This document shows, piece by piece, positions 28,400 to 32,625 of a stretch of 64,000 nucleotides of DNA (position 1 is the stretch's first letter; each line of letters starts with the position of its first letter). This DNA is from Amphiscolops sp. MND2022 (Eukaryota). The notes under the pieces are model-generated. The model ran no database searches and was not told the origin of the DNA. It saw nothing but the letters and a program-made list of their open reading frames with translations. Made by a program: the position numbers and the translations under genes. The DNA lies in assembly GCA_964187785.1 (NCBI GenBank), contig OZ076409.1, positions 51,896,001-51,960,000 of the forward strand, in the 5' to 3' direction.

Positions 28400-29050
28400 A
28401 TGGAATTGTAACAGAAAATTGTAAGTATCTGAGAGCAAGCAACTAAAGTGCAGAAAAGTGAAATGAATAATGAAATGAAAATGGTTGAAAATTCTGTTTA
28501 TGTAATTGCTCATCCATATACGGAAGGCGTGAGTCATTGAACCATAAAAGGAAAAGTTAGCCTACCATAAAAGGAAAAAGTAATTACGCACTAGCCTCAG
28601 CGTTCCCTCTCAAGTACCTGTCAATCACTTTTAATCTCCTTGAAAGTTAATTGCTCAAGTGGAACACGTGTCCCTCAGGGGACGCCACACTGTCTGCGAA
28701 AACCACTCAAGTGGAACATATTTCCCTCAAGGGACGCCACAGTGTCTGAGAAAATCACTCAAGTGGAACAAATTCCCTCGCAAAGACGTCGATAAGTCTG
28801 GGAAAACCTCTCAATTGGATTAATTATCCAACGATAAAAGTTAAATAGCGTGGGTAGGTGACAGCTGGTTACCCTTTCATCTTTAATTACTTTCCATAAA
28901 TGGAAATAAACCACACTGTTAGCGTAGTGGTTAAAAGCAAAGTCACGTGCTGTTTATCGCATTGTCATAATATTGCGGCGACGTAGGCCTTGCTTTTATC
29001 CACTACACTAAATTTCTTTATTCATTTTAATTTAAACTTTCTTTTAGAGC
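28400..29050. promoter_or_regulatory. Divergent promoter 1 with CArG, AP-1 and E-box motifs and 3 x ~53-bp repeats
   Basis: CCATAAAAGG at 28542 and 28565, CCATAAATGG at 28894, TGAGTCA at 28530, CACGTG at 28944; CTCAAGTGGAACA repeats at 28654-28815. Confidence 0.6.
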
Positions 29051-29055
29051 AGTTC

Positions 29056-29682
29056 ATGTCTGTTAAACAACAACTTCCATCTCTATCTTTGCTGTATTCA
29101 ATTTACGAAGACGTTCCAGAACAAACTTTGGACGAAGCTGACGTTGACTCGTACTTTTATCGCAACATATTGGACATTACAAAGACGGACAATCGTCTCG
29201 TGCGAGTCAGCAAGGGGTCCAATAAAAATTTATTTGCAATCAAAGTTTTTAAATTTTGCGACTTGAAAGCTCAACAACGCTTTTTCCTTGACGAGGAAAT
29301 TTCCATCACGAAAAAAGAGCTCGCTGCGACCCTCAACAGACTGCGTCACTTTTTAAAACAGTACGACCACGCACGAAAGGCAACTCTATACCCCCTACCG
29401 AAACCATTACAAGAGATTGGCTTTACGCTGTGGAAGGACGAACTCTTCTCACACTATTATCTAGATATAAAAGAGCATACTGATCGTCATTTGCGTTTGT
29501 CTTTCCGCTTTGAAAAAGACAAGAATTGTTGTTTTTCATTGAAAAAGTTTCTATATAGGGGAAATCAGTTTGTATTGACAGAAATTGTCAACCTCAGTCA
29601 CAACGAACTGTACGAACTGTATAAGGACCGCTACTTTATATCGAGCAAGAGCGGAATCATTGAAAGCAACTACGACGTCTAA
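29056..29682 (+). CDS. Maverick accessory protein, putative tandem PC4-like
   Basis: Open ORF from ATG 29056; two strand-rich repeats ending ISITKKELAA and VNLSHNELYEL. Confidence 0.6.
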   Translation: MSVKQQLPSLSLLYSIYEDVPEQTLDEADVDSYFYRNILDITKTDNRLVRVSKGSNKNLFAIKVFKFCDLKAQQRFFLDEEISITKKELAATLNRLRHFLKQYDHARKATLYPLPKPLQEIGFTLWKDELFSHYYLDIKEHTDRHLRLSFRFEKDKNCCFSLKKFLYRGNQFVLTEIVNLSHNELYELYKDRYFISSKSGIIESNYDV

Positions 29683-30047
29683 TGGAGCTCAACGCAGTTA
29701 TAAATACAATCGGGAACGTTTACTGCCCTGAATGTGAGCTACAAAAATGCATATTCGAACATTACTGCAAGGAGGATTCTGAAGAACATTATCATTACAG
29801 TTGTCCAAAGTGTGACGCTGATTGTCTTGTGCAGGGTATTCCTTTTAAGGATCAATTACAAATGACTCTGTTAAAAGATGCTGGTATCTATGCATTCAGA
29901 GCCAAGACGACAATGGATTACGAACGAGAACAAAAAGAACGAATCAAGAACGACAAAGGAATGGAATTTCTACAACAATTCCTTAGAAAAAAACCAACCA
30001 ATCAACGCACAGAAGAACCTCCAGCAAAAAAGATCAAGTCCATGTAG
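29682..30047 (+). CDS. Small Cys-rich (Zn-ribbon-like) protein with basic C-terminus
   Basis: CPEC and CPKC pairs; PPAKKIK NLS-like tail; TAATG stop/start overlap with the previous ORF. Confidence 0.65.
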   Translation: MELNAVINTIGNVYCPECELQKCIFEHYCKEDSEEHYHYSCPKCDADCLVQGIPFKDQLQMTLLKDAGIYAFRAKTTMDYEREQKERIKNDKGMEFLQQFLRKKPTNQRTEEPPAKKIKSM

Positions 30048-30190
30048 GGAAATGATCGTGTCAAATTCCTATTGGCTGTTCAATATCCTTATAAAGTCAT
30101 TTTTCAAGCAACTAGAATTCATTTCATTTCAAAACTCACTACAATCAACACGCTCTACAATCAACACGCTCTACAACAACAACAACAACA

Positions 30191-30769
30191 ATGTTCTTCT
30201 CAGTCTCCAACAACGGAACCCAGTGGACTCTGGACTTTTCACCGGACTCTGTCACAATCATAGTGAAAGATATGGTCCAAGACTTGACAATTTCCTCCTT
30301 GGAACTTCCAATCGCAGCCTTCAACTCTTTGATAAATCAAAGACAACAGTTTCTGGACAACCATTTAGCTCGCGTCCCCATAACTCCCAATCAGCAAGGC
30401 ACGTGGGAGATGCAAGACGAGGTCCGGGCCAGCGTTGGTGACCACGAAGTAAGCAGCGATTTCGTTCCCAGTGACTTGGATGATATTCAGTTCCATTGGG
30501 AGAATCCGAACATAGACATGGATGCTGTGTATCGACCAGGCATTGATACTCCCTTCTCTCCGTCACTGTTTGAAAACATTCCTGTTGCTGGAAGCGCAGA
30601 CAACCCCATAGAGATTGACGATGAACAAGATAAAGAGAACGAGTACCCCACAACACCCGAGTCGCAGAGACCCCTGCAACCACCACCACTGCATAGATCC
30701 CTGAGCCGTCCATTTGGGACACGACTGGAAAATATACCAAACTCTGTGTATCGTAGTTTGTTTGAATAA
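30191..30769 (+). CDS. Maverick hypothetical protein with acidic/Pro-rich C-terminus
   Basis: 192-aa ORF in good ATG context (ACAACAATG). Confidence 0.65.
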   Translation: MFFSVSNNGTQWTLDFSPDSVTIIVKDMVQDLTISSLELPIAAFNSLINQRQQFLDNHLARVPITPNQQGTWEMQDEVRASVGDHEVSSDFVPSDLDDIQFHWENPNIDMDAVYRPGIDTPFSPSLFENIPVAGSADNPIEIDDEQDKENEYPTTPESQRPLQPPPLHRSLSRPFGTRLENIPNSVYRSLFE

Positions 30770-30835
30770 TTGTATTTATTGTGTGTATTAAATTGAATTT
30801 TTATTATTCACAATTTCTTTTTCAAATCAGTCGTT

Positions 30836-31084
30836 ATGAGTGAGACTCTAGCAAAAGTATTAGTAGGAGCGTTTTTTATTGTCATAACTACTAGCTTGTT
30901 TATATATACAGTAAGGACTACAGAAAAAATGGGACGAAATCCCGATCCCTGCATTGAAGAGTACAAAGACTATTGTATGAACGAAGGAGAATGTTTTAGT
31001 CATGTGGAGGAAAACATTATAGGTTGCCTTTGTCCGCCACTTTACGGAGGGAAACGCTGTGATAAGTTCTTGTGGTGGTATTAG
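30836..31084 (+). CDS. EGF-like growth-factor protein (N-terminal hydrophobic segment + one EGF domain)
   Basis: VLVGAFFIVITTSLFIYTV, then C-x7-C-x5-C-x10-C-x-C-x8-C with NEGEC and YGGKRC. Confidence 0.85.
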   Translation: MSETLAKVLVGAFFIVITTSLFIYTVRTTEKMGRNPDPCIEEYKDYCMNEGECFSHVEENIIGCLCPPLYGGKRCDKFLWWY

Positions 31085-31117
31085 GAATGTTAGTCTTGTG
31101 CAAAACATTTCTCAATT

Positions 31118-31556
31118 AAAATCTGACACGTTGCAAAAATTTCAAGTTAAAATCAGACGCGTTGTAAAATTTTCCCAAAAAAATACGACACGTTGTAAAA
31201 TTTTCCTAAAAAAATACGACACGTTGTAAAATTTTCCCAAAAAAATACGACACGTTGTTAAAATTCTACTTTAAAATCAGACAAGAAGTAAAAATTTTTG
31301 CTTCAAAATCAGTCTTTTTAAAACTGTATCGCAAGTGCAAAATTTGTCGTTTTTACGGAGTAAAATGGGTGAAAACCAGTCTTTTTAAAAATAAAAACGC
31401 CTTCCAAATCAGTCTTTTTAATTTTTTCATCTCGTGTAAAATGAAACACGTTGAAAACTTTTCCCAAAAAAATACGACACGTTGTAAAAATTTCCCAAAA
31501 AAATACGACACGTTGTAAAATTTTTCCAAAAAAATAAGACACGTTGTAAAATTTTA
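31118..31556. repeat. ~30-31-bp tandem repeats in two clusters inside the Maverick
   Basis: AAAATACGACACGTTGTAAAATTTTCCC-type units. Confidence 0.85.
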
Positions 31557-31590
31557 CTTGTAAAAGTGTGCATTTTAATTTCAGTCAAAA

Positions 31591-31773
31591 ATGAGCAAGT
31601 GTTCCGACGACTTTTGTGACTTAGTAAAGTGGACGATTTATACTATTGGAGCATTCTTGTTGTTCCTACTAACCGTTGCTGCAATTGCTGCTCTCATTGG
31701 TCTATTTATTGTCATGTTGAGACTTCCTATCGACCTCTACAAGTCTCATTTCGTTGAAGAAAACAGTGGTTAG
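31591..31773 (+). CDS. Small membrane protein (60 aa)
   Basis: Long hydrophobic stretch; TTTCAG acceptor-like site just before the ATG. Confidence 0.55.
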   Translation: MSKCSDDFCDLVKWTIYTIGAFLLFLLTVAAIAALIGLFIVMLRLPIDLYKSHFVEENSG

Positions 31774-31774
31774 T

Positions 31775-32374
31775 TTACAAAGATTTAATTTTAAAAGATA
31801 CTAAATTACTATCATAATTACCGTAACCATCTAAAAAACAATCTACAATTTTTATTAGTTCTACTTCAAATTTTGTCTTTTTAACTTGTTCAATCCTGTC
31901 TGCGAAAACTGATCCACTCGTCTGTGTTGAAATTGTCTTTTGCAACGAACTCAGTAAATGTCTCTTGTATTTTTTACGCAACAGCCTCTTTTTTGCTATA
32001 CTCGGCATCCTTTCAATCGTCTTGTGGCGTTGATTGAATCGTACAGCTCGTTCAATATTGTCAAACACTTGTCCATTTTTGGTAACAATCTTTCCATGAA
32101 AGCGATACTTGAATAATGTGTAAAGGCAGTCGACCAACTGATATGTAAAACAAAAAGTGTCCAACTTTTCCATCAATACATTGATATCCTTCTCTGCAAT
32201 GAGCAAAATGTGATATTTACAATTGGGAACAGTACACATGGAATCTTCGTGTTGTGCAACACAATAGTCTTTGCTGACAAGATACTTTTCATATGTGTTT
32301 GCACAAATGTGTACACTCTTTGTAGAGTATACAGAGTAAAAACTTGGAACAACTTGCATCATTACAGCAGCCAT
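31775..32374 (-). CDS. Maverick hypothetical protein (possible degenerate HUH-like fold)
   Basis: 199 codons from ATG 32374 (MAAVMMQ); QHED...KYHILL and YTLFKY motifs. Confidence 0.6.
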   Translation of the reverse strand: MAAVMMQVVPSFYSVYSTKSVHICANTYEKYLVSKDYCVAQHEDSMCTVPNCKYHILLIAEKDINVLMEKLDTFCFTYQLVDCLYTLFKYRFHGKIVTKNGQVFDNIERAVRFNQRHKTIERMPSIAKKRLLRKKYKRHLLSSLQKTISTQTSGSVFADRIEQVKKTKFEVELIKIVDCFLDGYGNYDSNLVSFKIKSL

Positions 32375-32419
32375 CTGAACGTTGTGTTTTTGTTGAACAA
32401 AATGAATCTGAAAAGATGG

Positions 32420-32625
32420 AATTGTTACCTTAAAAGGAATAGTCACGTGATTTCCATAAAAGGAAATGCAATCATTACCTAAAAAGGAAGGATGACATAC
32501 AAATTTTGAATGACAACGCACAAACATTACCTTAAAAGGAAATGTCTTCCTTTTATGGAAAACGAGGCGTAAACATTTCCAAATATGGAACAGTCACGTG
32601 ACCAAAGTAGTATAAAAGCAAGTAC
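32420..32625. promoter_or_regulatory. Divergent promoter 2: six perfect CArG boxes, two E-boxes, TATA
   Basis: CC(A/T)6GG at 32428, 32454, 32478, 32530, 32549, 32579; GTCACGTGA with core at 32444 and 32595; TATAAAA at 32611. Confidence 0.75.

Follow-up and report, generated by a model that had tools for sequence, protein, structure and literature searches.

The window analysed here, the whole stretch of 64,000 nucleotides from Amphiscolops sp. MND2022 (contig OZ076409.1, positions 51,896,001 to 51,960,000), contains a single mobile element of 17.45 kb at 23402-40851. The element starts with AGTAGT and ends with ACTACT, has terminal inverted repeats (TIRs) of ~600 bp that are 98-99% complementary, and is flanked by a perfect 6-bp target-site duplication (TSD). 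Together with a retroviral-type integrase and an A32-type packaging ATPase, these features identify it as a Maverick/Polinton, as the original prediction had proposed, and they agree with the definition given in the part of PMC8097293 that was accessible. Between two divergent intergenic regions, P1 and P2, lies an intronless gene for an 82-aa protein with an EGF domain. Judging from the gene layout and from the TATA and initiator motifs at 32611-32635, P1 and P2 are putative promoters, and both contain clusters of CC(A/T)6GG (CArG) boxes. We consider the element a recently spreading Maverick with two separable host adaptations, a virokine and a promoter code specific to its family, and give this reading a probability of about 0.55.

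The EGF-domain protein predicted at 30836-31084 was found as an open reading frame (ORF) with a hydrophobic segment at about residues 8-26, an EGF module from C39 to C75 with an Arg before C6, and a tail of 7 residues. The best PDB sequence match among 48 was HB-EGF (E 2.8e-7), and the other top matches were an ant EGF-like peptide, neuregulin and betacellulin. The structure model (pLDDT 78) showed the hydrophobic segment as one helix from residue 2 to 33, EGF/TGF-alpha and HB-EGF ranked first in the structure search, and the Atlas leads were EGF and epigen (scores under 0.9). Judged by its six-cysteine module, ligand-type spacing and Arg before C6, the predicted protein is an EGF of the ErbB-ligand type. 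The gene has no canonical ErbB-ligand splice site between C4 and C5, and the protein has no downstream transmembrane segment, stopping 7 aa past C6 with its hydrophobic segment at the N-terminus; by gene structure, the viral protein would not count as a canonical ErbB pro-ligand, whereas its putative donor would. Among 22 aligned EGF proteins, which were picked by hand, the tail past C6 was exactly 7 residues long in 18, 8 in one and 4 in three.

A host ligand gene was found at G000:C5:29807940 onward. Within its EGF domain, a GT-AG intron separates C4 from C5 (L054 1483-1764), and the exon for the tail follows at a distance of 11 kb. According to the available part of PMC1618406, a splice site between C4 and C5 is diagnostic of ErbB ligands, and the intron position therefore places the C5 gene under this rule. 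Identity between the window EGF and the host gene is 75% over the 16 aa of exon 2 and 31% over 51 aa of exon 1. A protein library clustered at 50% gave 98 EGF matches, many of them anchor-plus-EGF proteins of 80-120 aa, and one type I pro-ligand of host type, P0169, with a downstream hydrophobic segment and tail. The genome search with P0169 (150 of 151 matches listed) returned two host exons 11 kb apart on C5 and at least 148 further EGF matches, which are distinct by coordinates from the matches of the viral-EGF search. For all 15 viral-type modules compared, identity was higher with P0169 (43-64%) than with four other animal EGF proteins (25-41%). These results suggest that a membrane-bound pro-ligand of the host is the most likely source of the EGF gene, and we infer a single capture of processed host ligand mRNA that was cut after the EGF module and then kept functional. 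That a captured ligand is present in a Maverick is well supported. The intron before the host EGF exon also holds a palindromic CArG box, CCATATATGG, at L054:234; being intronic, single and not significant alone, it was not counted as support.

Among the matches listed, the genome contains ~300 EGF copies; in the search with the viral EGF, 150 of 632 candidates were scored, and 22 of these were identical proteins. At least one other Maverick-like family carries an EGF gene. In the two copies of this second family read as DNA, AGTAGT lies ~230 bp ahead of EGF, which is the first gene, and a neighbour gene is common to both (33% identical); no perfect CArG box was found in 4.8 kb at each of the two, about half of which is flank. 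The virokine trait appears older than the window family. Differences shared between subfamilies gave a dN/dS of 0.17 for the EGF domain (6 synonymous, 5 non-synonymous) and 1.68 for the N-terminal part, indicating that the domain is, on an estimate from few sites, under purifying selection. The block 30836-31773 (EGF, 31-bp arrays and 60-aa ORF) showed 15-20% shared subfamily differences compared with 1-4% in its neighbours, figures that are biased by the choice of copies, and is possibly an exchanged module. One older copy (L037) has an internal inverted duplication with two EGF genes tail to tail. A sister family carries a 452-aa gene ~85% identical to the putative 447-aa capsid gene of the element, with copies at G000:C8:47690849, C1551:1538, C2:6383557, C9:49188966 and C12:8214934; among the matches listed, none for EGF or the CArG-E-box module fell within 20 kb of the copy at C2:6383557.

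The EGF could be functional without being a mitogenic agonist, acting as a tethered type II ligand for targeting or juxtacrine contact, or as a partial agonist or decoy that damps EGFR. The strong 19-residue hydrophobic segment, which starts at residue 8 within the modelled helix, is consistent with this, as are the aromatic 7-residue tail fixed across families and the fast change of the N-terminal part beside a conserved domain. However, the protein has kept the Arg ahead of C6 and a tail like that of the host, and the growth factors of poxviruses are agonists. These factors bind ErbB receptors, as stated in the consulted portion of PMC1618406. We consider a non-agonist role rather unlikely.

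The original prediction had placed three perfect CArG boxes in P1 and six in P2, and all of these coordinates proved right (Table 1). Using dinucleotide shuffles for all chance tests of motifs, we found 3 boxes in P1 against a mean of 0.05 and 6 in P2 against a mean of 0.03, counts reached in 0 of 2000 shuffles each. In the whole element, 13 boxes were present where 1.1 were expected, which was matched by 0 of 200 shuffles, and 13 of the 16 boxes of the window lie inside the element. The nine promoter boxes have varied cores and every one is followed by AA; the six P2 boxes are not one simple tandem repeat, because their A/T cores and orientation differ, and the P1 boxes at 28542 and 28565 are identical and 23 bp apart. 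The E-box GTCACGTG, which the original prediction had not listed, was also enriched, with 6 matches at 4 sites against 0.3 expected, all inside the element. As for AP-1, the sites at 28530, 23613 and 40634 exist as predicted, but they show no excess: the element has 4 where 3.5 are expected, at least 4 occur in 47.5% of 200 shuffles, and of the 16 AP-1 sites of the window 12 lie outside the element. The TIR sites (TGACTCA/TGAGTCA at 23613 and 40634) are one site counted twice because the TIR is repeated, and AP-1 was ruled out as a signal. Judged from their sequence, the P1 and P2 CArG boxes are likely bound by serum response factor (SRF).

From these parts a closed positive feedback had been proposed, in which a wound or mitogen activates SRF at P1 and P2, the EGF is produced, and EGFR-ERK signalling activates SRF in the same and neighbouring cells, so that many copies are switched on. 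Both modules are real and co-occur in 22 of 26 window-family EGF copies, all on C1-C2, and the EGF gene lies between the two CArG clusters, starting 1933 bp past the last P1 box and ending 1344 bp short of the first P2 box, which is within enhancer range; it may also be spliced from a P1 transcript. As context only, the accessible parts of two reports on an acoel (10.1101/2024.12.10.627832; PMC13046036) describe a single-EGF neuregulin that is needed for wound ERK, is itself ERK-induced and drives stem-cell accumulation, and the title of PMC7843934 names a host epiregulin-MRTF feedforward loop; SRF is unmentioned in what could be consulted of the ERK preprint (10.1101/2024.12.10.627832).

The promoter sequences speak against such a loop. 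With one ETS pattern, which a looser site could escape, every ETS/TCF match in P1 and P2 overlaps CArG boxes and none stands apart from them, so the predicted MAPK route through SRF/TCF has no footprint of its own. Nor is EGF the gene adjacent to a CArG promoter: it is the fourth plus-strand ORF after P1, and the nearest promoter-like site upstream is probably the CCAAT/TATA-like/initiator site at 30070-30130, which has no perfect CArG box, while P2 points leftward against EGF and rightward into the morphogenesis module.

The copies of the genome gave a similar picture. Co-occurrence of the EGF gene and CArG clusters across related Mavericks had been put forward as a test, and between families it failed: the CArG-E-box module lay within 20 kb of 22/26 window-family EGF copies and of 0/26 other EGF copies and 0/25 other ATPase matches (one EGF and two ATPase matches being left out of the count), and triple CArG clusters near EGF on C1 were found at 9/12 window-family copies compared with 0/10 others. 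Because the search patterns derive from the window family, scattered CArG boxes may exist elsewhere. The ligand is thus spread more widely than the CArG code, suggesting two traits rather than one co-evolved circuit. A loop confined to the window family alone is possible; we think the closed loop unlikely. We hold as equally doubtful its extension to an inherited wound-triggered amplifier, in which SRF would switch on the element and EGF at more than 100 CArG-bearing copies of the window family, and EGFR-ERK signalling and stem-cell recruitment in neighbours would activate further copies. If this were true, the virus would plug into, and possibly contribute to, the wound-signalling wave of the host.

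The CArG clusters recur in older copies of the window family, in line with the conservation in sister copies that had been proposed. Genome-wide, triple CArG clusters numbered 424 compared with 16 in a reversed control, although satellites inflate the 424, and on C1 the listed places were P2 sequence of the window family in 20 of 23 cases and satellite in 3. Between subfamilies, 1 of 90 CArG columns differs, and the non-motif P2 core is equally conserved (2 of 87). In 20 older copies, the CArG boxes carried 98 copy-specific mismatches where 100 were expected; since this is decay at the background rate, shared also by TATA and AP-1, selection is not attributable to the CArG boxes. The E-boxes, in a post-hoc finding, carried 5 mismatches where 34 were expected, and the three promoter E-boxes fell in the 96th-99th percentile of 8-mer preservation, compared with the 24th-61st for 8 of the 9 promoter CArG boxes. 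No other promoter motif was kept nearly as well, which could be due to selection or to a bound factor shielding the sites. An E-box 10 bp before TATAAAAG resembles the adenovirus major late promoter.

These data bear on whether the CArG-like boxes are the main switch at all, or whether an E-box factor of the USF or MITF-TFE type runs the promoters, or an element-encoded protein binds the boxes, for which the zinc-finger and Cys-rich proteins of the element would be candidates. The preservation of the E-boxes favours the former, but nine perfect boxes with varied cores, each followed by AA, are the signature of a MADS/SRF site, nearly all CArG columns are common to the subfamilies, and the host SRF keeps its recognition region; we regard either version as quite improbable. 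The genome has one SRF-like gene and one MEF2 gene. The MADS box of the host SRF (L052, L053) differs clearly from that of vertebrate SRF and is interrupted by a 4.4-kb intron; an exon of MEF2 matched many animals at 79-84% identity and was uninformative on the host clade. That the EGF is a passive passenger and the motif clusters functionless products of local duplication is very improbable despite the two identical P1 boxes, given that the EGF domain has a low dN/dS and is retained, ending at the same place, in several protein families, and that no shuffle reproduced the motif excess.

Related CArG sequences were also seen elsewhere in the genome. At G000:C1:51111576-51112158 there is a rearranged and locally amplified run of the P2 CArG cluster, a possible donor of SRF sites to the host genome. 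Two satellites have a perfect CArG box in their unit, one of 23 bp at G000:C2:1086909-1088729 and one of 32 bp at C1:43928069-43928206.

Our preferred reading, a Maverick with a captured virokine and a separate promoter code, would work as follows. An ancestor would have captured a spliced copy of the host gene for a type I pro-EGF ligand; the copy would end shortly past the EGF module and lack the C-terminal membrane anchor and tail of the host protein. The N-terminal hydrophobic segment would route the EGF into the secretory pathway, giving a ligand, either secreted or tethered to the membrane, that does not depend on shedding from a C-terminal anchor. This ligand most likely stimulates host EGFR, causing carrier and neighbouring cells to proliferate or gather, which would favour replication and access to stem or germ cells. 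Host SRF would read the CArG boxes and a bHLH-ZIP factor the E-boxes, and together these sites may turn on the polymerase and morphogenesis modules in cells where SRF is active (muscle-type, wounded or early embryonic cells). Activation of the promoters would probably not pass through MAPK-TCF, and EGF expression probably relies on splicing from either the internal or the left promoter. What is said here of TCF, MRTF, USF and MITF-TFE factors is general background.

Several points weigh against this reading. For the 82-aa protein, the Pfam EGF match (E 0.06) was below the cut-off, and Foldseek on its model returned nothing under E 0.001. The 44-column EGF tree did not resolve (support 63/39), so the proposed capture is argued from identity and gene structure. 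The dN/dS of 0.17 comes from 11 changes; the 20 older copies are full-length matches with 68-77% EGF identity and are biased to EGF divergence, and their CArG boxes decay as fast as background. Among the 148 EGF matches of the other families, 2 were read as DNA, and what the host offers on the receptor side is three GF_recep_IV domain matches.

The remaining genes of the element are given in Table 1. The polymerase ORF is a candidate for the protein-primed family B enzyme of Mavericks; it has motifs A, B and C and was recognised from these motifs only, with no Pfam, PHROG or significant PDB match. The 447-aa ORF had no relevant PDB profile match, and its structure model (pLDDT 35) was unusable. 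Most small ORFs obtained no name from Pfam or PHROG, and an Atlas match of the 208-aa ORF was dropped as too weak. In 11 of the 14 older copies that could be scored, the zinc-finger ORF and the polymerase body form one frame; in the window copy they are split (27946-28040), so this copy may be defective despite its 99% TIRs. T-rich tracts ending in AG lie just ahead of the ORF starts at 28356, 29056, 30836, 31591, 32374 and 34803, which suggests spliced or trans-spliced leaders; strong donor sites were few. Outside the element, a family of short dispersed inverted repeats occurs at 3000-5000, 13200-13800, 19900-20150, 21800-22300 and 48900-50500. No relatives outside the Amphiscolops genome were found among viral contigs or in the metagenomes searched with the EGF alignment, and three 1-kb capsid-like fragments from outside the genome were too short for use.

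Table 1. Features of the Maverick element and its promoter regions (positions in the window)
Feature	Position	Strand	Remarks
Left TSD, ATCCAC	23396-23401	.	second copy at 40852-40857
Left TIR	23402-23999	+	begins AGTAGT; two CCAAT (NF-Y-type) boxes, one TGACTCA, 19-20 bp repeats
Family B DNA polymerase ORF	24024-28040	-	motifs DASQLYP, KLLANSSYG, DTDS
C2H2 zinc-finger ORF	27946-28356	-	
P1, left divergent intergenic region	28357-29055	.	CArG 28542, 28565, 28894; TGAGTCA 28530; E-box GTCACGTG 28942
52-bp tandem repeats inside P1	28654-28819		
208-aa ORF	29056-29682	+	first gene past P1
121-aa Cys-rich ORF	29682-30047	+	coding-sequence CArG at 29841
Putative internal promoter	30070-30130	+	ATTGG, TATAAAG, TTTCATTT; without perfect CArG
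192-aa ORF	30191-30769	+	acidic, Pro-rich
Putative splice-acceptor-like entry	30787-30830	+	ATTAAA, T-rich tract, CAG 5 nt ahead of EGF start
EGF-ligand gene, 82 aa	30836-31084	+	intronless
Two arrays of 31-bp repeat	31099-31555	.	core GACACGTTG; between EGF and 60-aa ORF
60-aa ORF	31591-31773	+	hydrophobic
~199-aa Cys-rich ORF	31775-32374	-	leftward from P2; mechanical ORF reaches 32527
P2, right divergent intergenic region	32380-32764	.	six CArG within 32428-32588 (32428, 32454, 32478, 32530, 32549, 32579); E-boxes 32442, 32593
P2 core-promoter motifs	32611; 32628		TATAAAAG at 32611; TTTCATTT at 32628
GTCACGTG E-box sites	28942, 32442, 32593, also 34158		
Five small ORFs	32765-35057	+	head of rightward module
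A32-type packaging ATPase	35054-35884	+	Pox_A32 E 9e-7, above cut-off; Walker motifs
Retroviral-type integrase	36380-37318	+	rve E 7e-11
267-, 119- and 447-aa ORFs	37321-39847	+	candidate minor and major capsid by position and size only
Putative adenain-like cysteine protease	39849-40238	+	Peptidase_C5 E 0.0065, below curated cut-off; expected terminal position
Right TIR	40275-40851	-	finishes ACTACT

The element shares with known Mavericks/Polintons (polintoviruses, adintoviruses), as described in the available text of PMC8097293, the long TIRs with AGTAGT and ACTACT ends, the 6-bp TSD, the rve integrase, the A32 ATPase, and an arrangement in two gene modules plus an accessory region; a putative family B polymerase and a weak match to the adenain-like protease agree with this, and its modules point apart as in the cane toad elements described there. 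It differs in having an EGFR-ligand gene in the accessory region, and its capsid genes are assigned by position only. Nematode Mavericks (Widen et al. 2023, as cited in the consulted part of PMC11131425) likewise carry host genes, a protease and a kinase, as cargo, whereas the cargo here is a signalling ligand that has been shortened and occurs in at least two families of a single genome.

In its layout, a short leader followed by the EGF, the protein is similar to the leporipox growth factors. Poxvirus factors (vaccinia VGF, myxoma, Shope fibroma) are also host-derived viral single-EGF ErbB ligands, as far as the accessible portion of PMC1618406 describes them, but the window element integrates as a nuclear virus, is inherited in hundreds of copies and shares its genome with a traceable putative donor gene. 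A search of a viral fold library gave no significant structural match (poxvirus factors at E 2.7-3.5), so an independent capture is likely. Compared with host ErbB pro-ligands (TGF-alpha/HB-EGF type and the acoel NRG-1 layout), the cysteine spacing and the Arg before C6 are the same, whereas the viral gene has no intron and its protein neither the C-terminal membrane anchor nor the host tail. For the promoters, MERVL/MT2 LTRs provide a case of a mobile element that gained SRF motifs and is activated by SRF, although, in the part of PMC11960700 consulted, it is a retroelement that has no ligand gene and is expressed during zygotic genome activation; carrying SRF motifs thus does not by itself imply that a mobile element responds to mitogens. 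A search of the literature, the texts of PMC8502044 and PMC11131425 included and with most subscription journals and the supplementary gene tables of these papers outside its scope, gave no joint description of a Maverick and EGF, in agreement with the expectation of the original prediction. A Maverick carrying an EGFR ligand most likely derived from a host pro-ligand is what we consider new here.

Integrated DNA viruses of the Maverick type are found widely, and little is known of how they live and which cells they target. A selected host-derived EGFR ligand in ~300 copies among the matches listed would parallel the poxvirus growth factors in an inherited virus, and if silencing failed, the host would face growth-factor genes in very high dose. 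With their CArG boxes and E-boxes, the promoters provide a means of testing the time and place of Maverick activation, and the captured ligand points to host growth signalling as something that Mavericks exploit.

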